This document shows positions 4,527-58,172 of a stretch of DNA of 64,000 nt, piece after piece. The stretch's first letter is position 1. Every line of letters starts with the position of its first letter. The notes beneath the pieces were generated by a model that saw only the letters and a program-made list of their open reading frames with translations, had not been told where the DNA came from and made no database searches. Location of the stretch: assembly GCA_016182095.1 (NCBI GenBank), contig JACOXY010000011.1:67794-131793 (forward strand), in the 5' to 3' direction. This stretch comes from Candidatus Liptonbacteria bacterium. Lineage in GTDB: Bacteria > Patescibacteriota > Minisyncoccia > UBA6257 > JACOXY01. A program made the translations under genes and the position numbers.

Positions 4527-5267
4527 ATGAAAAATAACTTTTTAAGATTTGAGTTCAAATATTTGATACCTCGCTTTTTACTTGGAGACTTAAAAGGCGA
4601 CTTGGCAAAATTAAACTTTCAAGAAGATTCTGCCAATAATGCCGATGGTTTCTACCACGTGGCAAGCGTGTATTTTGACACTGTCACGCTCTCTGATTAT
4701 TCCGATAAAATCGGCGGTCTTTTAGCGAGAAAAAAATTGCGGGCAAGAATTTACAAAAAGAATGATGGAGAAGGCAGTGCGCCCGTTTGGTTGGAAATCA
4801 AAGAAAAGTATGATATGATGATCTCAAAAAAAAGAGTGGCTTTAAGCCTTACGGAGTGGCAAGAATTTTTACAGACTCCGCGCTTAGCTCGCCAAAATTT
4901 AAAATCACGCCTTTCAGAAAGCGAGACAAAAAACCTGGAAGAATTTATGTTTTGGATAGACCTGGAAAACAGAAGGCCTTATGTGCTGGTTGAATATAAG
5001 AGAAGCGCTTGGCACTTGTTAAGCGGCAAGGAAAAAATACGAATTACGCTGGATTATGACATTAAGGCGCAAAAGACAAAAAATTTGTTCGCTGATCCAA
5101 CGGCAAACGTTAGCCAAAATAATGCGGTCATAGAAATTAAATTCAGCGAAAAAATGCCGGCACAGATCGGTTCGTTGCTCGCAAAATACAATTTGGAACG
5201 CGTGGCGTACTCAAAATATGCTGAAAGCGTTGACTCAATAAGGAAATTTTATCCGGTGCCGCGTTAA
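4527..5267 (+). CDS. VTC-domain (polyphosphate-polymerase-like, CYTH-related) protein
   Basis: N-terminus RFEFKYLIP...YHVASVYFDT...LRARIYKK...WLEIKEKY matches the VTC domain pattern; immediately follows the CotH gene. Confidence 0.55.
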   Translation: MKNNFLRFEFKYLIPRFLLGDLKGDLAKLNFQEDSANNADGFYHVASVYFDTVTLSDYSDKIGGLLARKKLRARIYKKNDGEGSAPVWLEIKEKYDMMISKKRVALSLTEWQEFLQTPRLARQNLKSRLSESETKNLEEFMFWIDLENRRPYVLVEYKRSAWHLLSGKEKIRITLDYDIKAQKTKNLFADPTANVSQNNAVIEIKFSEKMPAQIGSLLAKYNLERVAYSKYAESVDSIRKFYPVPR

Positions 5268-33123: not shown

Positions 33124-33363
33124 CTATGGTTTATTTTGACAAAGAACATATATCACTTTCGGAGTACGCTTTTCATGGTATTTACCACCATGAAATTCTA
33201 AGTATTGTTCTTCAACCACTCTTACATCAAGCAATTTCCATCCTGCGTTTAAATACTCGTTAGCGTGATCTTCGGAGTAAACTTCAGAAACTTGCGCCAC
33301 TCGTGAAAGTTCGGACGCGTCCATTGATACCTCAATAATTTTACTGTCTTTGAAAAGTATCAA
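33124..33363 (-). CDS. hypothetical small protein
   Basis: 79 aa followed by a terminator hairpin (ggcgggcttttgcccgc plus T-run). Confidence 0.25.
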   Translation of the reverse strand: MILFKDSKIIEVSMDASELSRVAQVSEVYSEDHANEYLNAGWKLLDVRVVEEQYLEFHGGKYHEKRTPKVIYVLCQNKP

Positions 33364-34801
33364 GCACAGAGATTACTTTGTCAATCTCCGCTTTTGTCGT
33401 GTATTTCCCGAGCGTAAACCGTACGCTTTGTTTGGCGCGTTCTTTGGAGTGTCCAAGCGCCTCTATCACATAAGAGGGTGTGAGCGCACGGGCGCGACAA
33501 GCCGACCCCGAAGAAGCCGCGATGCCTGCTAAATCAAGTTTGGTTAGAAAAAATTGGGATTCAATGCCTGGGAGATAGACATTAAGAAAATTGGGGAGCC
33601 GTTGTAACGTTCTGGCCGTTCTATCGCTTCGCTCGTTCAAGCCGTTTTTCGCTATAGCATTTAGAACGCCCAGAACGTCTGCGCCGTTGATTTCCGCATT
33701 CAGATAAATCTTTTTGATGCCCTGCCATAAATTTTCACGCAGTTTGGCGATGCGGACAGATTCCTTTTCGCGATTTTTTTGTGCGAGTTCAACAGCCTTA
33801 GCAAAGCCGACAACGAACGGAACGTTTTCGGTGCCACTGCGCAATCCAAACTCTTGGCCACCACCAGTTATGATGGGGTGTGGGGTATGGAGTATAGGGT
33901 TTAGTTTTTTTTCTGCACTATACCCTAAACCCTGGACCCCAGACCCTTGGCGCGCATATAGCGCGCCAATGCCTTTCGGTCCATAGATTTTGTGAGCCGA
34001 GATTGTCATTAAGTCCACTCCCAATTTCCCCACATCACAATCTAAATACTGCAGAGCCTGTGCCGCATCAGTATGAAACATCGGATATGTAGAAGAAAAA
34101 CTTGTTTCTAAGAAAAGTGTCTCGGAGCCTGAGCGGGCATGGTTGCCGCTTTTAGTGGCAGAGCGAGGGCGAGAGTCAAGCGGGTGAGCGATCGGCTGGG
34201 CGAGCGAAACCCCGTCTTTTCGTGAAACAAGTTTTTCTTCTCTGAACTTCCTGATTATCTCGGCAATTTGCGCAACAGGCTCTACTGTTCCAACCTCATT
34301 ATTCGCATACATAACCGAAACCAAAACAGTACGCTCGTTAAGCGCCGCTTCAAGTTTTTCCAAATTAACAATTCCGCTTTTGTCTACTGGAATATAAACA
34401 ACTTCAACCCCCTCACGTTCCAAATCCCGCGCGGTTTCCAAAACAGATTCATGCTCTATTCCCGAAACCACAATCCTGGGGTGTGGGGTGTGGGGTGTGG
34501 GGTGTGGTTTTTTGTTTCCGCTATACCCCATACCCGATACCCTATACCCTTTGGCAATTCCCCGAATTGCCAAATTATTCGCTTCTGTTGCGGATCCCGT
34601 AAAAATAATTTCATTAAAGTTAGCGCCAATCGCCTTGGCAATTGTTTCCCGCGACTCATCAAGCGCCGACATAGCTGCTTGCCCAAAAGAATGCAGAGAT
34701 CCCGTGTTCCCAAATTTCAATCCAAAATACGGCTCCATTGCTTTCTTCACAACCGGATCAATTGGAGTTGTAGAGGCGTAGTCAAGGTAGATGCGCTTCA
34801 T
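33341..34801 (-). CDS. iscS: cysteine desulfurase (IscS/NifS-like) carrying two in-frame insertions
   Basis: YLDYASTTP; SAHKIYGPKG PLP lysine; C-terminal SSGSAC. The tracked ORF carries an N-terminal extension; the likely start is MKRIYLDYAS at 34801. Confidence 0.8.
   Translation of the reverse strand: MKRIYLDYASTTPIDPVVKKAMEPYFGLKFGNTGSLHSFGQAAMSALDESRETIAKAIGANFNEIIFTGSATEANNLAIRGIAKGYRVSGMGYSGNKKPHPTPHTPHPRIVVSGIEHESVLETARDLEREGVEVVYIPVDKSGIVNLEKLEAALNERTVLVSVMYANNEVGTVEPVAQIAEIIRKFREEKLVSRKDGVSLAQPIAHPLDSRPRSATKSGNHARSGSETLFLETSFSSTYPMFHTDAAQALQYLDCDVGKLGVDLMTISAHKIYGPKGIGALYARQGSGVQGLGYSAEKKLNPILHTPHPIITGGGQEFGLRSGTENVPFVVGFAKAVELAQKNREKESVRIAKLRENLWQGIKKIYLNAEINGADVLGVLNAIAKNGLNERSDRTARTLQRLPNFLNVYLPGIESQFFLTKLDLAGIAASSGSACRARALTPSYVIEALGHSKERAKQSVRFTLGKYTTKAEIDKVISVLDTFQRQ
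33872..33950. repeat. G-rich insertion element #1, in-frame in iscS
   Basis: ggggtgtggggtatggagtatagggtttag...ctataccctaaaccctggaccccagaccc encodes GSGVQGLGYSAEKKLNPILHTPHP between the conserved ALYARQ and IITGGGQE. Confidence 0.6.
34476..34553. repeat. G-rich insertion element #2, in-frame in iscS
   Basis: (ggggtgt)x4 then a T-loop then ataccccatacccgataccctataccc; encodes VSGMGYSGNKKPHPTPHTPHP. Confidence 0.6.
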
Positions 34802-34862
34802 AAAATGAAGCGTCATATGTCCGGTATCAAGTATCACGTAAATGGAATTTTTATTTTCCCCA

Positions 34863-34896
34863 AACACATGACACATAACACATGACACATGACACT
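34863..34896. repeat. tandem heptamer (acacatg) repeat in the iscS upstream intergenic region
   Basis: acacatgacacataacacatgacacatgacac, flanked by caaacac and gtgtttg. Confidence 0.5.
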
Positions 34897-35464
34897 AAAA
34901 TAGTGTTTGCGGAAAAATAAATTCACTAAAAGCAAGTTTAACCTCCAGGCGGTTGCCGGTGTTCCTCTCGGGAACAATTAGGTGTCCGCGGCTTTTCGCC
35001 AATTCATATAAATCTTTAGTAATTTTCACATCATTAAGGCAGTACTCTTCCAGCTCTTTCCACCTGCCCTCTTTGTAAAATTTAATAGCTTCAAGTCCGT
35101 GGTTTGTTTTCCCAACCCCAAGATTCGCCTGCGCCAGAAGATCAAGCCCGATTCTTTGGCCGGCACTGGTTTCAATTTCATCCAAAAGATCAAGCCGGTT
35201 AATTTTCCATAGATCAAATTTAAAATGCTTAGCAAGCACCGGTATGTCAAAACGATTAATACTAAAGCCGATTATAAGGCCGGCGTTCTTCAGAAATGTT
35301 TCGAGGTTGGCCAGTTCGGTGTCTTTAAATGCCAAATACCTGCCCTCGTTATAAGAATAAACACCAACCAGCGAGACCTCTAATCTATCAATCCGATCGC
35401 GCCCCCCAACATCCGCGAAAGAATTTTTAGTTTCAATGTCTAAAACGACTGTATCAGGTATCAT
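34895..35464 (-). CDS. DEDD-type 3'-5' exonuclease-like (RNase H-like fold) protein
   Basis: N-terminal VLDIET... (DxE) exonuclease motif. Confidence 0.35.
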   Translation of the reverse strand: MIPDTVVLDIETKNSFADVGGRDRIDRLEVSLVGVYSYNEGRYLAFKDTELANLETFLKNAGLIIGFSINRFDIPVLAKHFKFDLWKINRLDLLDEIETSAGQRIGLDLLAQANLGVGKTNHGLEAIKFYKEGRWKELEEYCLNDVKITKDLYELAKSRGHLIVPERNTGNRLEVKLAFSEFIFPQTLF

Positions 35465-35467
35465 AAT

Positions 35468-35509
35468 AACTCCACGAATTTACGAATCTTGCGTATATAC
35501 GAATTTACA
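35468..35509. repeat. left inverted repeat flanking the GxxExxY gene
   Basis: aactccacgaatttacgaatcttgcgtatatacgaatttaca. Confidence 0.6.
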
Positions 35510-35912
35510 AGTCGTTAACAAGACGCTTGAAACGAACTCCGTCTTTTAAAAAATAAATTATAATTGCTAAATTGAGATTAACACTTTTAAGATAAGATGA
35601 TACTTGGTCTATGTGCACATACCCAAATTTTGACACTACCTTTAATTCTACTATTACTTTGCCATCCACTAAAAAATCAAAGAAATTTTTCCCAACATTC
35701 TCTCCTTGAAAATTTACTGGAGCGTATTTTTCTTTTTCAAATTTAATGCCCTTTGCCACAAGCGATTTAGCATAAGCCCTCTGATATACAACCTCTTTGT
35801 GTCCCCATCTCAATTCATTAAAAACATCATACGCTGAACCTATTATCTCAAAACTCAGTTCCGGATAAAGCAAATCTTGTCTCCGTAATTTTTGATTCGT
35901 ATATTCACCCAT
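35505..35912 (-). CDS. GxxExxY-family (PD-(D/E)XK-like) protein
   Basis: GSAYDVFNELRWGHKEVVYQRA...VIVELKV matches the GxxExxY pattern. Confidence 0.5.
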   Translation of the reverse strand: MGEYTNQKLRRQDLLYPELSFEIIGSAYDVFNELRWGHKEVVYQRAYAKSLVAKGIKFEKEKYAPVNFQGENVGKNFFDFLVDGKVIVELKVVSKFGYVHIDQVSSYLKSVNLNLAIIIYFLKDGVRFKRLVNDL

Positions 35913-36923: not shown

Positions 36924-37093
36924 AGAACCAAAAAAAGAGTGAATGCGGGAGGAGGGATTTGCCCACAACTCTCACTTCGCCGTCGCGAAGTTCGGTCGCG
37001 GGCCCGCCTCGCGATCGCGCGTGCTCGCGCGATAAGCTCCGGCATTCAAATCCCGCCCGCAGGCAAAGAAGTTTGCCTGCTCGGAAAAAGAAA

Positions 37094-37167
37094 TGCGGGA
37101 GGAGGGATTTGAACCCTCAAAATCAGGCTTTTAAGGCCAGCACGTATGCCAATTCCGTCACTCCCGC
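37094..37167 (-). tRNA. type-I tRNA with anticodon UAA (Leu-like), atypical
   Basis: Acceptor GCGGGAG/CTCCCGC; T arm GAGGG-TTCAAAT-CCCTC; anticodon loop CTTAAAA; only a 5-nt variable region and a 3-bp D stem. Confidence 0.45.
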
Positions 37168-37183
37168 AAAGTCACTCGCCCTC

Positions 37184-37460
37184 AGGAGTGTGAGATATGA
37201 ACATAAATCAAATTTAGAAGCCAAAAAATGAGGTGATTTCAAGGCACGACGACGAAATTGTATTCAGAGAATACATTGAGGAGGAGTAACGAAGAAAATC
37301 AGCCATTTTTTGGCTTCCCCTCGGGGGCGGGCGAATTTCCTAAATCTGCCTCGTTCATCGTCGGAGCTGTACTCTTTGAGTACTAATCTCCTCCTCGCGC
37401 CTCACATATTTAGTAAATTCGCTCCGCTAAATTGATTTTGTTCGTATCTCACACTCCTAT
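37184..37460. repeat. inverted-repeat-bounded element of about 275 bp (MITE-like or structured RNA)
   Basis: aggagtgtgagatatgaacataaatcaa (37184-37212) versus the reverse complement of attgattttgttcgtatctcacactcct (37430-37460); interior has several nested complementary blocks. Confidence 0.45.
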
Positions 37461-42026: not shown

Positions 42027-44158
42027 TGGGGCGCAAGAAAAAACATGAAGAAGAAAACGAGGAAGGGGGCCTGTTAAACATGGAAATCGGGCATTTTTTT
42101 GAACTTCACCCAGACGCCAAAAAAAGCGTGGTAGCGGTGCTTTTCGCAGCCATAGCGATTATTTTAATTTTATCCAGCCTAGGCAAGGCCGGACCGGCAG
42201 GAAATGCCATCTTCCAAAGCTTAAGTTATCTCTTTGGGTGGGGATACTACTTGGCTCCCGTGACGATGTTCCTCGCGGCGTTTATATTTCTAATAACCAA
42301 GAGGCAAAGAGTCTTGGGCATTACAATCTTCGGATCGTTTCTGCTTTTTCTCTCAAGCTTGGGCATTATTGATATAGTTTCCCCAAAAAGCGGCGGCCTT
42401 TTGGGTTCCATAATTGGAATTATTGAGGCTCCATTCGGTTATATGGCGGCGCTCGTTCTAACTGGAGCATTTTTTATCGCTTCCCTTATCGCAACCCTGA
42501 ATACTCCCATAAAAATAAAAAACCCTTTCGCTCGCGGCAATGTCTCTTCCGAGGATGAAGTACTAACTCCCGAAGAAGAGGAGAATATTGAAGCCCACGA
42601 AAAAGACGACGCGGAGTCAGAAGAGGATGGAGAGGAAGCAGAAGATGAAGAAGAGGAGGCGCGGGCAGATGAAGAGAATGCAAAACAAGGGCGCGGATTA
42701 TTCGGCAGAAGAAAAAAATCGGGGCTCGCGGCAATAAGCGGAGATTATACGCCCCCACCGCTTTCACTCCTTAAAACTTCTACCGAAAAACCGACTTCTG
42801 GAGATTTAAGAGCGAACGCCAATATTATTAAAAGAACATTGGAGTCGTTCGGCATTGCCGTTGAGATGGGAGAAATAAATGTTGGGCCAAAAGTAACTCG
42901 CTATACGCTAAAGCCTGCCGAAGGAGTAAAGATCTCAAAAATAAACGCCTTAAATCAAGATTTGGCGTTAGCGCTCGCGGCTCACCCCATAAGAATAGAA
43001 GCCCCCATCCCTGGAAAATCTTTGGTTGGCATTGAAGTGCCCAACAAAGCCGCGGCCGTAGTGCGACTTGGAAGTCTCATGAACTATAAAGAGTTTAGCG
43101 ATGGCGGCATGCTTGATTTTGTTTTGGGAAGAGATGTGACAGGAAATCCAGTTTTCTCTGATATTGCCAAAATGCCGCATTTATTAGTGGCTGGCGCAAC
43201 CGGTTCGGGGAAGTCGGTTATGCTGCATACTTTGATTTTGTGTCTGCTTTATAAAAATTCTCCCGAAACTTTGCGCATGATAATGATTGACCCGAAGAGA
43301 GTGGAGCTTTCTGTGTACAACGGCATGCCGCACCTAATAGCTCCGGTCGTGACAGACGGGAAAAAAACCGTTGCGGTTTTTCGATGGACTATAAGCGAAA
43401 TGGAAAGGCGCTATGGACTTCTTGAGGCCGCCGGGAGCCGCGACATCAAAAGCTTTAATGTGCAGAATAAAAAGGAGGCCTTGCCATATATTGTAATAAT
43501 TATTGATGAGCTGGCAGACCTTATGGCAGCCTATGGCAGAGAAATTGAGGGGTCAATCGTGCGCATTGCCCAAATGGCGCGCGCAACAGGAATTCATCTT
43601 ATAGTGGCAACCCAACGTCCGTCAGTCGAAGTAATAACCGGGTTAATTAAGGCAAACATAACCACCAGAATAGCACTCCAAGTCGCAAGCCAAGTTGACT
43701 CCAGAACCATTCTTGACTCCGCGGGAGCCGAAAAACTTTTAGGAGGCGGCGATTTGCTTTTTATATCTGCCGAGTTTTCAAAACCAAAAAGAATCCAGGG
43801 CGCCTACGTGAGCGAAGACGAAATCAGAATTGTTGCGAATTTTATAAGAGAGAAAAATAGCGACCTGAAAAATGACGAGGAAATTGAATTCGCTAATCAA
43901 TCCACACACGAAATAGGAAACGACAAAGATGTATTTGACGAGTTCTCCGAAGATGGCAACGAAGAAGACTTGATGTATGGAGACGCGGTAGAAGTTGTGA
44001 GAGAGGCGGGCAAGGCTTCCGCCTCGCTCTTACAGCGCCGCCTTAAAGTCGGCTACGCCAGGGCCGCCCGCCTGCTTGATATTATGGAGGCGCGAGGTAT
44101 CATAGGACCGGGGGACGGAGCGAAACCACGCGAGGTATATTTAAACGAAGAAGTGTAG
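42026..44158 (+). CDS. ftsK: DNA translocase FtsK/SpoIIIE
   Basis: 4 N-terminal TM helices; acidic linker; Walker A GATGSGKS; C-terminal gamma wHTH. Confidence 0.85.
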   Translation: MGRKKKHEEENEEGGLLNMEIGHFFELHPDAKKSVVAVLFAAIAIILILSSLGKAGPAGNAIFQSLSYLFGWGYYLAPVTMFLAAFIFLITKRQRVLGITIFGSFLLFLSSLGIIDIVSPKSGGLLGSIIGIIEAPFGYMAALVLTGAFFIASLIATLNTPIKIKNPFARGNVSSEDEVLTPEEEENIEAHEKDDAESEEDGEEAEDEEEEARADEENAKQGRGLFGRRKKSGLAAISGDYTPPPLSLLKTSTEKPTSGDLRANANIIKRTLESFGIAVEMGEINVGPKVTRYTLKPAEGVKISKINALNQDLALALAAHPIRIEAPIPGKSLVGIEVPNKAAAVVRLGSLMNYKEFSDGGMLDFVLGRDVTGNPVFSDIAKMPHLLVAGATGSGKSVMLHTLILCLLYKNSPETLRMIMIDPKRVELSVYNGMPHLIAPVVTDGKKTVAVFRWTISEMERRYGLLEAAGSRDIKSFNVQNKKEALPYIVIIIDELADLMAAYGREIEGSIVRIAQMARATGIHLIVATQRPSVEVITGLIKANITTRIALQVASQVDSRTILDSAGAEKLLGGGDLLFISAEFSKPKRIQGAYVSEDEIRIVANFIREKNSDLKNDEEIEFANQSTHEIGNDKDVFDEFSEDGNEEDLMYGDAVEVVREAGKASASLLQRRLKVGYARAARLLDIMEARGIIGPGDGAKPREVYLNEEV

Positions 44159-44159
44159 T

Positions 44160-44232
44160 AACTCCACGAATTTACGAATCTAGCTAATATACGAATTTAT
44201 CCGACGTGAACCAATAGATTCGTATATACGCT
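44160..44232. repeat. solo palindromic copy of the GxxExxY-flanking repeat
   Basis: aactccacgaatttacgaatctagctaatatacgaattta...agattcgtatatacg. Confidence 0.55.
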
Positions 44233-45014: not shown

Positions 45015-46034
45015 ATGTCCAAACAAAAAGACGTAAGCGACAAGAAATCAGAGATTAAGGATCAAGCGCAAGAACTAAATAAGTTGATGTCTTCTCTGCA
45101 AGAGAAATTCGGCGAAGGCGCCATAATGAAGCTCGGAGAGATTAAGCATGTTAATGTGAGCATTATCCCGACTGGGTCGTTTTCTCTGGACCTTGCCCTC
45201 GGTGTCGGCGGCCTGCCAAAGGGCAGGATAGTTGAGATCTTCGGGCCGGAATCATCCGGCAAAACAACGTTAGCGCTAAATGTAGTGGCTCAAGCGCAAA
45301 AGAAAGGCGGCAAGGCGGCGTTTATAGACGCGGAACATGCCATGGATCCGGAATACGCCAAAAAATTGGGGGTCAAAGTTGACGAACTCTTGATTTCCCA
45401 ACCGGACAGCGGAGAGGAGGCGTTAAATATCCTGGAAAGCTTGGTGCGCTCCGGCATCATTGACGTTGTAGTGGTTGATTCTGTCGCGGCCCTAACCCCG
45501 CAAAAAGAAATTGAGGGAGAGATGGGGGCGCAGTTTATGGGGCTTCAGGCGCGAATGATGTCGCAGGCGCTCCGTAAACTTACGGCAATTTCCGCCAAAT
45601 CAGGCACCATGGTAATTTTTATAAATCAATTGCGAGAAAAAATAGGCATAATGTTCGGAAATCCAGAAACCACTCCCGGAGGCCGGGCTCTTAAATTTTA
45701 TTCTTCGGTCAGGATTGACGTGAGACGCGCCGCTTGGGTTAAAAAAGGAGAAGAGGTGGTCGGAAGCAGGGTTAAGGTAAAAGTGGTAAAAAATAAAGTT
45801 GCCCCGCCATTTAAGCAAACTGAATTTGATATTATGTTTGGAGAAGGTATTTCCTATGAGGGCGATATTTTAAATACTGCCGTGGGAAAAGGCGCCATAA
45901 CAAAATCCGGCGCGAGCTACAGCTTTGAGGGAGAAAAAATAGGCCATGGGTATGAGGCCGCTAAAGAAAAATTGAAGGAAGACAGGAAGCTTTTGAATGA
46001 AATCAAAAAGAAAATTGTCGCCCTGGCTGGTTAA
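45015..46034 (+). CDS. recA: recombinase RecA
   Basis: GPESSGKTT Walker A; conserved RecA core. Confidence 0.9.
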
Positions 46035-46049
46035 AATTGCTGGCAAAAA

Positions 46050-46074
46050 TAAAGAGGCCGAGGGGGCCTCTTTT
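46050..46074. terminator. bidirectional terminator
   Basis: aaagaggccgagggggcctcttttt. Confidence 0.5.
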
Positions 46075-46667
46075 TACATGTAGGAAAGTTTACTGACTTC
46101 TACTTGCATAAAACCCATTGCTTCTAATTTAGTCTTGGTATTTCTGTCTTTCGCCCAAACTCTTCCTGCCGCCGGCAAGTAAAGTTCCGGCACTACAAGC
46201 TGAACGGAGTGTCCATCTCGAGCGTGCTTAAGCCAATTAGCGCGACTCCACGACGGCTTAAAGATGAGCCGTTTTTCATAATCACTCGTTTCTCTATTGC
46301 CATTACAATTGTTAATTGCAATATGCCACTGTGCAAAATCCATAAAAATACCATCCGCACTACTGAAAGAAAATAGCGCTCCGTTTATGAATCTTCGCCC
46401 CTTACGATATGCATATTTGTAAACGCCGTCTTCCCACCAATTATCTTGATATCCTGTAAGCCGCAAGTCGTCTTCTGTCTTGCCAACAGCCATAAAAAGA
46501 GGATAAAAACCTACCTCCCTCTTAAGCCAAAAATATGCCCCCTTAAAATCAGGGTCGGCATGTCGGGGATTTGGTTTCGCTATCCCAAAAGAAACGCTAT
46601 CTAAAGGACGGCAGTGATGAAAGAGAAGCATGATCCCTCCTTGTGGGCTACCGAGATTATATAACAA
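46074..46667 (-). CDS. hypothetical protein
   Basis: Unassigned W/Y-rich soluble protein. Confidence 0.3.
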   Translation of the reverse strand: MLYNLGSPQGGIMLLFHHCRPLDSVSFGIAKPNPRHADPDFKGAYFWLKREVGFYPLFMAVGKTEDDLRLTGYQDNWWEDGVYKYAYRKGRRFINGALFSFSSADGIFMDFAQWHIAINNCNGNRETSDYEKRLIFKPSWSRANWLKHARDGHSVQLVVPELYLPAAGRVWAKDRNTKTKLEAMGFMQVEVSKLSYM

Positions 46668-46714
46668 AAATTATACCTTGTAAACTGCAATTATTATTTA
46701 TTAGAGTGAGCCGT

Positions 46715-46764
46715 GGACAAAACATAAAAGTTCTCCAAAAGTTTCGCAACCAGTATCAGGCCGG
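46715..46764. repeat. left copy of a ~50-bp direct repeat (duplicate of the folD 3' end)
   Basis: aaaagttctccaaaagtttcgcaaccagtatcaggccggtaccgtgggg. Confidence 0.6.
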
Positions 46765-46776
46765 TACCGTGGGGAA

Positions 46777-47034
46777 CTAATAAGTACTGCTGGTTCTCCG
46801 ATTAATTTCGGTCACTTCAATCAGCTTTAAATCAATGCGGATATCATAAAAAATCCGATAGTTGCCAACCCGCCTACGCCATGAGTTTTCTTGTCCGCCA
46901 AGCTTCTCTATATCTCCCGAGTATGGATCTTTTGATAATTCGTCCAATGCATTCACAATTCTACCTTTATCATTCTTTGGGAATCTACTGAGGTGCTTTT
47001 TAGCGCTTTTGGCTACGTGAACCGCGAAGCTCAT
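46777..47034 (-). CDS. RelE/ParE-family type II toxin
   Basis: ...WRRRVGNYRIFYDIRIDLKLIEVTEINRR matches the RelE/ParE C-terminus. Confidence 0.55.
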   Translation of the reverse strand: MSFAVHVAKSAKKHLSRFPKNDKGRIVNALDELSKDPYSGDIEKLGGQENSWRRRVGNYRIFYDIRIDLKLIEVTEINRRTSSTY

Positions 47035-47227
47035 GCTGAAGATCGACAAGCGTTACAAAGTCGCCTCTTTTGAGCTCTTTTCTGCCTCGCTCAACTGCTT
47101 TTTTTTCTTTTGCAGTTAAATGTGTCACGGGAATAGAGCGCTCCAACAATTTCTCATACTCTTTGCGAGGCAAAACAATTAAGTCGCCGTCTTTGGTAAG
47201 TTTTTTGGGTATTGTAATTATTGTCAT
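47000..47227 (-). CDS. cognate antitoxin (small DNA-binding protein)
   Basis: 75 aa directly upstream of, and overlapping, the toxin gene. Confidence 0.4.
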   Translation of the reverse strand: MTIITIPKKLTKDGDLIVLPRKEYEKLLERSIPVTHLTAKEKKAVERGRKELKRGDFVTLVDLQHELRGSRSQKR

Positions 47228-47281
47228 GATTTAAAAGTACCACGTAAAAATATAAAAATCAATGAAGTTTGTAATTTCGTA

Positions 47282-48130
47282 CTATTTTGCAATTTCGCAA
47301 AGTTTATAAAAGTTCTCCAAAAGTTTCGCAACCAGTATCGGGCCGGTACCGTGAGGGGTGGGAGTATAGGAAATAGGGTTTAGGCTAAAGCCCGATGGGC
47401 TCGCCCGTCTAGGGGTTTGGGGTTTAGGGTCTAGTGAAGAAGAATCAAAGTCACCTTTGCCGTTGTCGTAGCCAAAGTCAATAACGACCGCTTCTTCGTT
47501 CAACATGTCTGGCTTTATAATACCGGCTTTACCAACACCAGAAATTACGAGGTTGGCTTCCTTTAAGAGCAAGAAGTCGCTTCCTTCGTCAAAGAGAATA
47601 ATTTCTTTCGCTTTGCCTTGAAGCCACACCGATATCGGTTTCCCGACCAAAAACCCCAAGCCGACTACTGCAACCTTGCTAGTTGATAGGGTATAGCCAA
47701 TAACCAATAGTATATCCTGTAAAGTACCGACGGCAGGGGGCAAAACCGGATTCCGGCCGGTATAAAACGCTCCGAGCGTGCGCTCGCCCAAAACATCCAC
47801 GTCCTTCTCGCGCGGGATAACATTTAAAATATAGTGCTTCTTCACGTGCTCCGGAAGCGGGAGCTGAACTATTATCCCCCCGCAAGTCCTATGATTTGCG
47901 ATTTTTAAAACTTCTTCGCGTAATTCGTCATTCTTTACTGTTTCCGGGAACTCATACAAACGGAAGTCTATGCCCAGCTCTTTAGCGGCTTTTTCTTTTT
48001 GTTTTATAAAACTCTTTGATGCCTCATCGTCGTCAACAAGCACGGCAGCCAAAAAATTTTTGGGTTTGGGCTGTGCCTTCAGTTTTTCTAAAATATTTTC
48101 TGCTATCTGTTTTCCATTTATAATTGCCAT
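47282..48130 (-). CDS. folD: bifunctional methylene-THF dehydrogenase/cyclohydrolase FolD carrying an in-frame insertion
   Basis: N-terminus MAIINGKQIAE...; C-terminal TPTPHGTGPILVAKLL matches the TPVPGGVGPMT consensus; the 47308-47357 repeat and the 47355-47432 insertion both lie inside the CDS. Confidence 0.75.
   Translation of the reverse strand: MAIINGKQIAENILEKLKAQPKPKNFLAAVLVDDDEASKSFIKQKEKAAKELGIDFRLYEFPETVKNDELREEVLKIANHRTCGGIIVQLPLPEHVKKHYILNVIPREKDVDVLGERTLGAFYTGRNPVLPPAVGTLQDILLVIGYTLSTSKVAVVGLGFLVGKPISVWLQGKAKEIILFDEGSDFLLLKEANLVISGVGKAGIIKPDMLNEEAVVIDFGYDNGKGDFDSSSLDPKPQTPRRASPSGFSLNPISYTPTPHGTGPILVAKLLENFYKLCEIAK
47355..47432. repeat. G-rich insertion element, in-frame in folD
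   Basis: ggggtgggagtataggaaatagggtttagg...ggggtttggggtttagggtctag encodes LDPKPQTPRRASPSGFSLNPISY. Confidence 0.55.
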
Positions 48131-48275
48131 AGTATTAAATTGCTCATTTTAGGACTTCCGATGCCTCAAATATTATCTTAAGTTTTTGGACATCGGAAGT
48201 CCAGAAATTATTTTGCCTCGCCCCTCCAGCAATGGAGAAGCGAGGCATCGGCCGGATCATCTGTTTTAATATGCG

Positions 48276-48674
48276 CTATAATCTACCCTTAACTGTCCGA
48301 GGGCGAATCGCAAACTGAATTACATTCCCGCTTTTTGGCAGGGGAAGGTCGGCGATATCGACTTTTCTCATTGCATTATAAAAAATTAGATACTGCCGCG
48401 GATCGCGACTGTTGCGCAGAAGCCGCAAACGCAAATGTTTGGGGCTAACTCCTAAATCAATTTTGAAGTCGTGGTAGTCCAGAATCCAGGCCGTGGCAAA
48501 AGCCAACTGATCGTCATTCTCCACAATTTTTAAATAATTAAGCATGGCCATTGCGCCTTCCCTTGAAACGAGCCCTTGAGCAGAAGATGGTAGGGCATCG
48601 CCCAATTCCGTGGAGGCAACGCCTGCGTGAACTGTCCTATTCAGTTCTCTAAGATGGACTTTTTTAAATAACAC
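48276..48674 (-). CDS. hypothetical protein
   Basis: No recognised motifs. Confidence 0.3.
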   Translation of the reverse strand: MLFKKVHLRELNRTVHAGVASTELGDALPSSAQGLVSREGAMAMLNYLKIVENDDQLAFATAWILDYHDFKIDLGVSPKHLRLRLLRNSRDPRQYLIFYNAMRKVDIADLPLPKSGNVIQFAIRPRTVKGRL

Positions 48675-48817
48675 CCCTTACTCCGTTTTATTAAAATGAC
48701 TCGCTACAACCAGTAATTCATTTTTATCCTCAGTTGTCAAGCGCTTCTACGAGGACGGGCCTCGTAGAGACCTAAACACAACAACAAATCCCGCAGAAAG
48801 GCGGGGTTTAATTTGGG

Positions 48818-48850
48818 TTTGATTTATGTTCGTATCTCACACTCCTATAT
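48818..48850. repeat. third copy of the ttcgtatctcacactcctat repeat
   Basis: tttgatttatgttcgtatctcacactcctatat. Confidence 0.5.
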
Positions 48851-49177
48851 CGCCGTGAAAAGATTTGAGCATACCCAGCCGCCATACTTCATATCAAGCA
48901 AAAACTGCTTTGTATCACGGTTGTCAAAATCAAAATAATCTTTATCTTTCTCTTCTTGTATTTTGCCACCAAGAAAAATGCCGTCTGTAAAGAGAAGTTT
49001 TAGCGAGCTGCCTGTATAGCAGCTATTTTTGTCTCTATAGGGCGCAACCGGTAAAATTTTCACGCACTCATAGGCAGCTTCCACTTGAGGAACTTTAGGA
49101 AAATTTATTTGTCTGTAAACAAAATAGGAAGTGAGAAGTAAAAAAATTAAGAGCAGCATCCGCAAGCGGAACCTCAA
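48845..49177 (-). CDS. hypothetical secreted or membrane-anchored protein
   Basis: N-terminal hydrophobic signal. Confidence 0.3.
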   Translation of the reverse strand: MRFRLRMLLLIFLLLTSYFVYRQINFPKVPQVEAAYECVKILPVAPYRDKNSCYTGSSLKLLFTDGIFLGGKIQEEKDKDYFDFDNRDTKQFLLDMKYGGWVCSNLFTAI

Positions 49178-49488
49178 GTTAGACTCCTTTTATTTGACTC
49201 TTGTTTAAGTATGGCACATAACCCAATATCACCAAAACTAAAAAAGAGGCCGCGTGGCCCCTCATATCAGCTCAAGAAAATACACCCCCACAAATGCAAA
49301 GAAGACATAATTACAGCAATCATCAAAAACAAGCCAAAACTTACAAAAAACCAGGCCAGCAATGTTGATCCCTGATCCCGCGCCCGACCATCCCATAATA
49401 TGCGCCCTGGACTGTTCTTCCCTAAAAAATAATGATAGACAATCAAGCAAGCGCCCAACAACAAAATCAATTGTAATATGATGACCAC

Positions 49489-56389: not shown

Positions 56390-57572
56390 GTGTCCAGTAT
56401 TCTTGAAATAGTGCGAACCGTTTTCGCCGCCTGCGGCGGCGAGGAAAGCCCCCCGCGAAAAATCCGAAAGGCAGCGGAGCCGCACCGATGACAATTTCAA
56501 GTTTTTCTTTGGCGGCAATTTAATTATGAATTTAATTCAATTAAAAATCAAACATAATAAAAAGAAAAAACCCGCTAGGTCCGAAGACATAGCGGGAAGC
56601 AGTTGGTCTGCTCAGTCCTTGCTACTTGGCACCGTTCAAGCTGTGCCGGAGTTCACGCACCCACTCGCTTCTCTCGCGAGCACGCCGCACTTCGGCGTTG
56701 TGCTCCTTGGTGTGGTATGCAATGTCTCGCCGTGCGTTCTTGACGAGCTGGGTACGGTACTGCTTGCCCGAGAGCCGCTGTGGCATCGTAGGTGTGTGCA
56801 GGCAGTCGAACTCGACGCTTTCCGCGAGCTGATCGATCATGAAGCTCTTGAGGCCTTCGTGATCTTTGGTGGGCGGAACCCACTTTCCCGCTTGCTTGAG
56901 CATGGCGATGTAAGCTCGCCCGGTCTTCTCGTTCTTCTCGCCATACTTCTTGCTCGAGCGAACTTCGTCATCGAAGGCCTTCTTGGCCTCTCTCTCCGCC
57001 CGTGCGTTACTCCACTTTTCGACTTCGGCGAGACGCTTCTTGGCCGTCTCGATTGCGTCGAGGTGGTAGTTGCTGGGTCGGAATTCATCGGGGATTGGCG
57101 CATCGAGCGAATCGTCGCGCATCTCGATGAGAGCGCCGAAGGCGCGAGCGCACTTCATGGCGAACTCCGAGAACGTTACCTGCTTCCCGTCGTTCAGGTC
57201 TGCTGTGTATCCTGTCGGCATCGGTTTCTCCTTTCCTTTCGGATGTTTGGGTTTTCAATGGGAAAACGGCCTTTTGCCGCTATCCCGAACCATTATTCCT
57301 GCTACAAGTATAGCAATATTTATATGGAATGTCAAGAGCAAACAAAAAATCAGCATTTCTGCTGTTTTTCTGGTTTAAATCTTATGTATTTTACGATTAA
57401 AAATTTTTCCGTTCCCCAAATTCAAAATATGGTTCGCGCCGATATTTTTCTTCGGGTTCTTCTGCGGTTTTTATCGGTGTGGCTCCACCGCCTTTCGGAT
57501 TTTTCGCGGGGGGCTTTCCTCGCCGCCGCAGGCGGCGAAAACGGTTCGCACTATTTCAAGAATACTGGACAC
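56390..57572. mobile_element. GC-rich element of about 1.2 kb bounded by ~85-100 bp terminal inverted repeats
   Basis: Left TIR gtgtccagtattcttgaaatagtgcgaaccgttttcgccgcctgcggcggcgaggaaagccccccgcg...; right TIR is its reverse complement at 57490-57572; the interior is visibly GC-richer than the host. Confidence 0.45.
56622..57221 (-). CDS. hypothetical protein carried by the TIR element
   Basis: 199 aa, K/E/A/R-rich with normal composition; the overlapping + frame is L/R-rich antisense. Confidence 0.35.
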   Translation of the reverse strand: MPTGYTADLNDGKQVTFSEFAMKCARAFGALIEMRDDSLDAPIPDEFRPSNYHLDAIETAKKRLAEVEKWSNARAEREAKKAFDDEVRSSKKYGEKNEKTGRAYIAMLKQAGKWVPPTKDHEGLKSFMIDQLAESVEFDCLHTPTMPQRLSGKQYRTQLVKNARRDIAYHTKEHNAEVRRARERSEWVRELRHSLNGAK

Positions 57573-57576
57573 CTTA

Positions 57577-58015
57577 GGAAAAGGCAAGCTAGAGGAAGCC
57601 GCCTCGCTTCGCTCGGCGGCCATTTCGTATTGAATTTTGGGGGCAAAAACGAATTGGCGGTTTCGTTTGGGGGACGGAAAAATTTTTAATCAATTTTAGT
57701 TCAACAAAACTATGCGTTATGTAATCTATGCTCGCAAATCAACGGAAGATGACGACAGGCAAGTGCTTTCGATTGAAGCTCAACTCGTTGAGCTTTCTGA
57801 ATTTGCCGCCAAAGAAAAACTTGAAATTGTCGCCTCTTTTCAAGAGGCAAAAACTGCAAAAGAACCCGAAGAAAAACATCGGCGCGAACCATATTTTGCG
57901 AAACCGCCAATTCGTTTTTGCCCCCAAAATTCAATACGAAATGGCCGCCGAGCGAAGCGAGGCGGCTTCGAAATGGCCGCCGAGCGAAGCGAGGCGGCTT
58001 CCTCTAGCTTGCGTT
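57577..58015. mobile_element. second TIR-bounded remnant holding a truncated serine-recombinase N-terminus
   Basis: TIRs gaggaagccgcctcgcttcgctcggcggccatttcgtattgaattttgggggcaaaaacgaattggcggtttcg with its reverse complement at 57903-58015 (32-bp tandem duplication on the right). The internal ORF opens MRYVIYARKSTEDDDRQVLSIEAQ (resolvase-like) and is cut after about 55 aa. Confidence 0.45.
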
Positions 58016-58026
58016 TTTCTAAAGTG

Positions 58027-58098
58027 TCCCCTCGGAGGGAATCGAACCCCCATTAAAAGGTTAGAAACCTTCCGTTCTATCCGTTGAACTACGAGGGG
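58027..58098 (-). tRNA. second tRNA-Arg (UCU) copy
   Basis: Acceptor CCCCTCG/CGAGGGG; anticodon stem GAAGG/CCTTT with loop TTTCTAA; T arm GGGGG-TTCGATT-CCCTC. Confidence 0.5.
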
Positions 58099-58172
58099 TG
58101 GTCGGAGCGCCGAGAATCGAACTCGGACCTTATGCTCCCAAAGCATATATACTACCACTATACTACGCTCCG
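58099..58172 (-). tRNA. tRNA-Pro (UGG) with encoded CCA
   Basis: Acceptor CGGAGCG/CGCTCCG; anticodon stem TATGC/GCATA with loop TTTGGGA; ends ACCA; abuts tRNA-Arg with no spacer. Confidence 0.6.

Follow-up and report, generated by a model that had tools for sequence, protein, structure and literature searches.

A RelE-type toxin-antitoxin cassette lying between two different folD 3′ ends in a Candidatus Liptonbacteria genome

In a 64-kb stretch of a metagenome-assembled genome (MAG) of Candidatus Liptonbacteria, an uncultured groundwater bacterium of the Patescibacteria or candidate phyla radiation (CPR), the housekeeping gene folD is followed by a toxin-antitoxin pair of the RelE type and then, directly behind the toxin gene, by a second copy of the last conserved part of folD. 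We call this whole stretch of 64,000 nucleotides the window. The two folD ends that flank the pair share a nearly identical core and continue into two tails that cannot be aligned to each other. On balance, this arrangement is best explained by a recombination event at the folD 3′ end, in which a foreign segment of 531 nt was probably joined to the gene and the native end was displaced downstream. The segment, running from 47305 down to 46775, would comprise a tail of donor-type folD up to and including the stop codon, a spacer of 54 nt, the antitoxin gene and the toxin gene, bracketed on both sides by copies of the resident core.

All elements of the locus (46000-48200) lie on the minus strand, in the order folD, spacer, an open reading frame (ORF) of 75 aa, an overlapping ORF of 85 aa, the orphan folD fragment, a promoter-like site and a further ORF, o197 (Table 1). 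A first-pass annotation, made from the letters of the window alone, had proposed that direct repeats of about 50 bp flank the pair, the right one being the genuine folD 3′ end and the left one a decaying duplicate. This description was borne out by a repeat finder, which gave a repeat of 51 nt with 49 of 51 positions identical and the two copies 582 nt apart from start to start. The right copy had been placed essentially correctly, and the left one, put at 46715-46764, was about 10 nt away from its actual position at 46724-46774. The window contains exactly two occurrences of a 31-nt core taken from the repeat, and 100 shuffled sequences contain none. The right copy belongs to an intact FolD with both of its Pfam domains and is translated as ...PHGTGPILVAKLLENFYKLCEIAK before the stop codon. 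Read in frame, the left copy gives PHGTGLILVAKLLENFYVLSTAHSNK and two consecutive stops, and it begins 2 nt past the stop codon of the toxin. One of the two differences between the copies changes proline to leucine in the left one, at a position occupied by proline in all 120 relatives, and for this reason the left copy is taken as the decaying one. Identity between the copies is bounded by the toxin stop at one end and by the ENFY codons at the other; with such sharp limits on both sides, the 51-nt repeat is not part of a larger segmental duplication, an arrangement that the first-pass annotation had named as one that would speak against its own interpretation. FolD, toxin and antitoxin are identical to proteins of an NCBI MAG, where they come from one 134-kb contig, the FolD twin being P0001.

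The same region was compared in eight related folD loci (L001, L002, L005, L006, L087, L088, L089 and L091), whose FolD proteins are 60% to 72% identical to that of the window; L003 and L004 encode the same FolD as L002, L090 the same as L089 and L092 the same as L091. Gene order is kept in these loci as glyA-folD-(variable)-recA-ftsK, and in L087 recA comes directly after folD. In all eight, the FolD core is present once and folD is not followed by a toxin pair. The cassette is therefore an insertion, as had been proposed, at a spot that varies between relatives.

The tails of folD suggest what was inserted. Past the ENFY residues, the C-terminal tail of FolD varies by lineage. In the window, the right tail (AAACTTTGCGAAATTGCAAAATAG, encoding KLCEIAK and a stop) is orthologous to the tail of L001 and similar to that of L006, and the left tail (GTTTTGTCCACGGCTCA..., encoding VLSTAHSNK and a stop) is orthologous to those of L002 and L005. 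In the latter case, homology runs about 15 nt beyond the stop codon (window, TTGCAGTTTACAAGG; L005, TTGTGGTTTACAAAA) and reaches the −35 hexamer of the promoter-like site of o197. Since this strong promoter-like site follows directly after the orphan stop codon, the orphan end sits in what seems to be native folD-downstream context. Judged by these alignments, the right and left tails are two different genuine folD tail alleles, which argues that the insert brought its own folD tail and that the resident tail was displaced. In this respect, the first-pass view that a long target duplication had reconstituted the FolD C-terminus is not supported as it stood, because the two tails are different alleles, although the functional C-terminus is indeed intact. 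Each of the two cores is only 35-43/51 identical to that of any relative.

With regard to the inserted genes, the 85-aa protein matches the RelE profile PF05016 with 30 bits (gathering cut-off 23) and, at the sequence level, the archaeal toxins aRelE (PDB 1wmi, phmmer E 0.0018) and RelE3 (3bpq). Its AlphaFold model has a predicted local distance difference test score (pLDDT) of 87, and the top Foldseek matches of the model are all RelE/YoeB/HigB toxins; it superposes on RelE of Pyrococcus, Thermus, Mycobacterium and E. coli with template modelling (TM) scores up to 0.85 (1wmi). The C-terminal motif RR.S.TY is invariant across 24 homologues. The antitoxin ORF lies upstream in the same orientation and overlaps the toxin gene by 35 nt, homologous pairs are found in many loci, and its N-terminal part carries the conserved motif TIPKKL...LVVLPRKEYE. 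No antitoxin family was matched in Pfam, NCBIfam or a PDB profile search, and the structure model is of low confidence; the 75-aa protein is called an antitoxin because of its position and its conserved pairing with the toxin. Taking together the sequence signature, the modelled microbial RNase-like fold of RelE and the gene pairing, we classify the pair as a putative type II toxin-antitoxin system of the RelE/ParE superfamily, in agreement with the first-pass annotation, which had read the two genes as a RelE/ParE antitoxin and toxin. The archaeal RelBE systems (P. horikoshii aRelE-aRelB, 1wmi; M. jannaschii RelE3, 3bpq) share with it the RelE fold, the PF05016 signature, the conserved C-terminal Arg/Tyr residues and a small overlapping partner gene upstream. 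They differ in that the partner protein of the window falls in no described antitoxin family and that its toxin is a predicted one. No second copy of the toxin or of the antitoxin was found in the window. In the 54-nt spacer, a simple promoter scan detected no consensus promoter and no terminator was predicted, so that read-through from folD is possible.

Is the arrangement at folD a singular accident? A scan based on the toxin alignment, for which 80 metagenomic loci were taken from at least 481 for the toxin family, suggests otherwise. In each locus, the region upstream of the antitoxin was compared with the region just past the toxin stop, and repeats of at least 36 bits were counted after removal of redundant loci (49 left). 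Flanking direct repeats were present in 11 of the 49 non-redundant loci and in 0 of 81 controls, in which the same geometry was shifted by 1.5-2.2 kb on the same contigs; repeats in inverted orientation reached the threshold in 1/49. The duplicates vary by locus from 33 to 93 nt. Some correspond to 3′ ends of host genes (RecJ in L067, a histidine kinase in L065, a gene in L034), others to 5′ ends (RpiB in L056, a surface protein in L026), and others again to an intergenic stretch (L064) or terminator-like hairpins (L023, L070). Duplicates of the same geometry, 77-93% identical, occur in independent assemblies. The downstream copy begins 0-24 nt past the toxin stop in six loci, that of the window included, and the toxin family in general has almost no 3′ flank. 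In seven pairs that could be compared in frame, the copies differ at codon positions 1, 2 and 3 in 17, 7 and 47 cases, with 37 synonymous and 18 non-synonymous codon changes. Such a third-position excess fits divergence as functional alleles in separate lineages better than decay in place. Moreover, the cassettes of L007 and of L015/L016 are 96-99% identical and have different right-hand contexts, which indicates recent mobility of the family. Dispersed repeat units (GGAAAATAGGGACGTTTCTGAATTTTT) surround these same cassettes (L007 44-832, L015 5-718, L016 426-1262), and intergenic repeats of this kind may also serve as recombination anchors.

How would such an arrangement arise? Recombination would have occurred between a folD haplotype with the cassette behind folD and a haplotype without it, the two pairing by homology in or upstream of the conserved core. 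As the core is the last conserved block before the hypervariable tail and the variable intergenic region, it is a natural site for a homologous crossover. On the other side, a single illegitimate join would connect the end of the toxin gene to the start of the resident core. The route may be homology-facilitated illegitimate recombination or, with the same topological outcome, a circle bearing a folD end and the cassette may have integrated by a single crossover (Campbell-type). The outcome would be an intact folD with an imported tail, then the cassette, and then the native folD end still attached to its own downstream DNA and to the promoter of o197. If the two 51-nt repeats recombined with each other, a circle of 582 bp would be excised and folD would regain the native VLS tail. 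Loss of the cassette would be penalised by a stable RelE toxin through post-segregational toxicity, which would explain why an unstable duplication persists around the cassettes and not elsewhere on the same contigs.

The scheme has precedents. Homology-facilitated illegitimate recombination (de Vries and Wackernagel 2002; Prudhomme et al. 2002, both as cited in PMC3240628 and PMC2884548) has been put forward as the origin of the displaced ends of effector genes and of the orphan immunity genes in type VI secretion system (T6SS) and Rhs loci (PMC5361080), and a like origin has been suggested for small variable segments at large (PMC2884548, PMC3240628). In the displaced 3′ ends and orphan immunity genes of Rhs, contact-dependent inhibition (CDI) and T6SS loci, as at folD, a module gains entry by homology within a conserved gene that lies upstream of it, and the resident 3′ end is pushed downstream (PMC5361080). 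The locus described here differs in that its anchor is a housekeeping gene and not a toxin gene, the module is a self-contained addiction pair and only 26 codons are orphaned. Likewise, homology-facilitated and Campbell-type events combine one homologous side with one illegitimate join and trap foreign DNA beside a conserved anchor (PMC3240628, PMC2884548), and the single crossover of a circle in Campbell-type integration obligatorily leaves flanking direct repeats, as found at folD. At folD, the homologous anchor could be no longer than the 51-nt core. No account of toxin-antitoxin cassettes bordered by duplicated ends of housekeeping genes came up in literature searches. In experimental homology-facilitated events, recipient DNA is usually deleted, in contrast to the duplication at folD.

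Several observations weigh against recombination of this kind. The orphan starts, 0-24 nt past the toxin stop, are tighter than random illegitimate joins predict, and the junction between toxin stop and core in the window has no clear microhomology (the junction of L034 shares TTGA). For the two cores of the window to be so similar, either the donor must have belonged to the same species, or the crossover must have fallen at the very last positions of the core, or gene conversion must have followed. As the window repeat shows no more than two differences, the argument from codon positions is carried by the other loci, and two of the seven pairs were delimited at the protein level, which biases them toward synonymous differences. 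Among the loci examined, where the closest FolD is 72% identical, there is neither a donor haplotype (folD with the KLCEIAK tail and the cassette, without the orphan) nor a conspecific haplotype with an empty site, so that the direction and the route of the exchange are inferred. Since the body of FolD is about equidistant from L005, L006 and L002, the relatives do not tell which of the two tails is native. Finally, a convergent gene of about 120 aa and of no assigned family follows folD in L002 (6159-6575), L005 (1751-2104) and L006 (1144-1506), with 50-61% mutual identity. It is missing in the window, where the cassette and the orphan folD end sit, and more than one event must therefore have shaped this spot.

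The main alternative is that the duplication arose in place, through a mechanism of the cassette itself that cuts the two strands at gene ends with a stagger of 50-100 nt, the copies having diverged later. We consider this unlikely, even though it accounts well for several features: the cores agree at 49 of 51 positions and are equally far from all relatives, flanking duplicates are frequent and specific to the cassettes, the right end of the cassette is tight at the toxin stop in many loci, and an exact 15-nt duplication around a small GC-rich insert in L087 indicates that target duplications do occur in the clade. What it fails to explain is the tails, which are unalignable and yet orthologous to two different natural folD tails, an impossible outcome with only 4% divergence in the core. 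The codon-position bias (17/7/47) also exceeds what is expected for one copy decaying neutrally, the length of the duplicates is not constant, and no transposase, terminal inverted repeats or recombinase gene is present at the locus. A further reading would make the cassette family a new mobile unit, a mini-cassette of promoter, antitoxin and toxin that ends at the toxin stop, moves as a small circle or by a dedicated mechanism into conserved gene ends, uses 30-100 nt of host sequence as attachment site, generates long and variable duplications and is kept from excision by addiction; to this possibility we give a similarly low probability.

A second full copy of folD might also have been present once, for instance in a captured antitoxin-toxin-folD block whose first ~255 folD codons were later deleted. 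This would explain why the toxin stop touches folD sequence. Members of the same toxin family do lie directly upstream of a full folD in L008, L017, L030 and L073, with folD starting 2-8 nt past the toxin stop, and in L087 and L006 the start of folD is adjoined by another toxin pair. The deletion would, however, have to end within 2 nt of the toxin stop, and the same geometry recurs at RecJ, at a histidine kinase and at another gene for which no such upstream arrangement is known. The orphan is, besides, contiguous with folD-type downstream DNA, as expected of a resident end and not of an imported gene. We regard this explanation as improbable.

Less probable still is a decayed integrative island, in which a tyrosine or serine recombinase used an att site at the folD 3′ end, supplied a replacement end and was deleted with everything else save the toxin-antitoxin pair. 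Islands and prophages that target tRNA and tmRNA genes integrate at gene 3′ ends and rebuild them, with attL and attR on the flanks. Flanking direct repeats, a gene end rebuilt from element DNA and displacement of the original end are common to those elements and to the folD locus, and the sharp limits of repeat identity would suit such a mechanism. The differences are that here there is no integrase, the insert measures 0.53 kb and the related cassettes sit at many different target genes. No integrase lies between or beside the repeats, where the neighbouring ORFs have no family match, the repeats contain no inverted-repeat or hairpin structure, and the deletions would have had to stop 0-3 nt from the repeat in several independent loci and at different target genes.

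An integron-type gene cassette, a transposon insertion and an assembly artefact can be largely dismissed: toxin-antitoxin cassettes are common in chromosomal integrons, and those of the Vibrio superintegron resemble the present one as promoter-containing, mobile two-gene addiction units of ~0.5 kb, but this locus has no attC, array or IntI (Pfam and NCBIfam scans of the neighbouring ORFs found no recombinase), its flanks are duplicates of a host gene, it is a single cassette among housekeeping genes, and its ends form no more stable folds than shuffled sequence does (z +0.99 and +1.11) and match no Rfam family above sub-threshold noise. The check for attC-like or other recombination sites at the cassette ends that the first-pass annotation had suggested, made by inverted-repeat search, folding against shuffles and Rfam, was accordingly negative. 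In the case of a transposon, only two small ORFs lie between the repeats, terminal inverted repeats are lacking, the duplicate length is not fixed, and past the duplicated parts each side reads on into a different folD tail allele. As for assembly, the sequence does come from a metagenome-assembled genome, but variants private to the orphan separate the toxin stop from the longest stretch (34 nt) that both copies share exactly, a junction that a k-mer-collapse chimera cannot create, and divergent (77-93%) duplicates of the same geometry come from independent assemblies.

Table 1. Features of the folD locus and the basis of their assignment (positions in the window).
Feature	Position	Strand	Basis
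folD, bifunctional methylene-tetrahydrofolate dehydrogenase/cyclohydrolase, intact, 282 aa	47282..48130	-	PF00763 and PF02882; end-to-end alignment with solved FolD structures
Low-complexity in-frame FolD loop insert (LDPKPQTPRRASPSGFSLNPISYTPT), outside the cassette	47357..47435	-	Alignment to solved structures
Right repeat copy, conserved core (PHGTGPILVAKLLENFY) of the functional folD	47306..47356	-	Repeat finder, alignment
Tail of the functional folD copy (KLCEIAK, stop), putative donor allele arriving with the cassette	47282..47305	-	Orthologous to L001 tail AAATTATGCGAAAATTAA; like L006 KLNETK
54-nt spacer from folD stop to antitoxin start, presumed cassette promoter/operator	47228..47281	-	Sequence
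Putative antitoxin, 75 aa	47000..47227	-	Paired with toxin in many loci
RelE-family toxin, 85 aa, ATG start (47049 from TTG)	46777..47034	-	PF05016, structure model
Left repeat copy, orphan folD core, 2 nt after toxin stop	46724..46774	-	Repeat finder, reading frame
Displaced folD tail of the orphan copy (VLSTAHSNK, two stops)	46691..46723	-	Orthologous to L002/L005 tails (GTTTTGTCYGCAACTCA...)
Promoter-like site for the next gene, TTTACA-17-TATAAT, 11/12 consensus	46656..46684	-	Directly past orphan folD stop
o197, downstream ORF, 186-197 aa	46074..46631	-	63% identical homologue downstream of folD in L006
Sole predicted terminator	46051-46073		After o197

Some further features of the folD neighbourhood deserve mention. 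The downstream ORF o197 matched no Pfam or NCBIfam family. On the other side of folD, between glyA and folD (48131-49488), the window contains about 1.36 kb with two family-less ORFs of 132 and 110 aa. The two genes overlap in L001 and are 10 nt apart in L091, and different small genes occupy the gap in other relatives, so that it represents a second variable spot. In another clade, members of the same RelE family are located between glyA and folD (L008 3001-3263, L017, L030 and L073 2971-3248), with the toxin stop 2-8 nt before the folD start, and in L087 (4406-5015) and in L006 (57-262), the locus with the closest FolD relative, a different RelE/ParE pair borders folD at its start. Toxin pairs that repeatedly touch folD could reflect a hotspot or a functional link. 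In L087, an exact 15-nt direct repeat (ATGATTATTAGCGGC), which corresponds to the first five folD codons and overlaps the toxin stop, is found at 4918-4932 and 5001-5015. It flanks a GC-rich hairpin insert of 68 nt that separates the toxin gene from folD and looks like a small insertion with target duplication.

The glyA-folD variable region of the window also contains one arm (48818-48846) of a 29-nt inverted repeat, 97% complementary, whose other arm (37184-37212) lies beside tRNA-Leu (37093-37168). Elsewhere in the window, long inverted repeats are clustered at 56390-58029 (105 nt at 95%, 71 nt at 100% and 61 nt at 95%), together with a perfect 32-nt tandem duplication (57937-58000); this cluster adjoins the genes for tRNA-Arg and tRNA-Pro (58026-58172). 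A direct repeat of 56 nt, 84% identical and rich in ACGAATTTACGAAT motifs, occurs at 35464-35519 and 44156-44211, 8.7 kb apart, and may represent a shared regulatory or promoter element.

The first-pass annotation had also placed a G-rich insertion element next to the cassette inside folD. The sequence is real, but it corresponds to an in-frame variable loop of FolD, a 10-residue insert with respect to solved FolD structures, and is neither an insertion sequence nor linked to the cassette; it is a separate phenomenon. In P0003 the loop is the same except that the central GC-rich hairpin is missing, and other relatives carry lineage-specific low-complexity peptides there. The loop shares an CTAAACCCTAT...ATACTCC.ACCCC arm with two hairpins of 75 nt at 33874-33948 and 34477-34551, and a composition scan found only these three copies of the G-rich element in the window. 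The two hairpins, with G-rich and C-rich arms, are 77% identical (DNA fold z = −3.2) and lie in frame within a cysteine desulfurase ORF (33341..34888, minus strand), where they are translated as ...GYSGNKKPHPTPHTPHP... and ...GLGYSAEKKLNPILHTPHP..., segments that are both missing from solved homologues. The elements in the desulfurase and in FolD resemble the Rickettsia palindromic elements, selfish DNA within coding genes, here in a CPR genome. The FolD loop, which precedes ...YTPTPGGTGP, is hypervariable in more than 100 Patescibacteria (P0002-P0120), with repeat-like fillers such as LEIRNSKLEI, LKPNTYNLKP, TRTDADLTRTNAD and a nested LEIGNC-LPAGAPAQTG-KLEI. It would seem that repeat DNA specific to the respective genome was inserted in frame at this one site more than once.

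What does the folD locus tell us about the spread of toxin-antitoxin pairs? Such pairs are said to be mobile, and the route of chromosomal copies outside plasmids, phages and integrons is seldom visible. At folD, the scar is legible at the nucleotide level, as an imported tail, a cassette and a displaced resident end. The RelE-type mini-cassette at folD would be a variant form of a known kind of recombination scar, and its recurrence across this CPR toxin family makes it more interesting. Patescibacteria have tiny genomes in which few mobile elements have been recognised, and they are believed to take up DNA. The arrangement also raises the idea that a toxin may protect an otherwise unstable direct-repeat duplication from resolution. 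For genome annotation, short pseudogene fragments of gene ends beside toxin-antitoxin pairs would be markers of recent gene transfer. The presence of this signature in about a fifth of the related loci of uncultured Patescibacteria suggests that recombination at the conserved ends of genes is a main route by which addiction modules spread.

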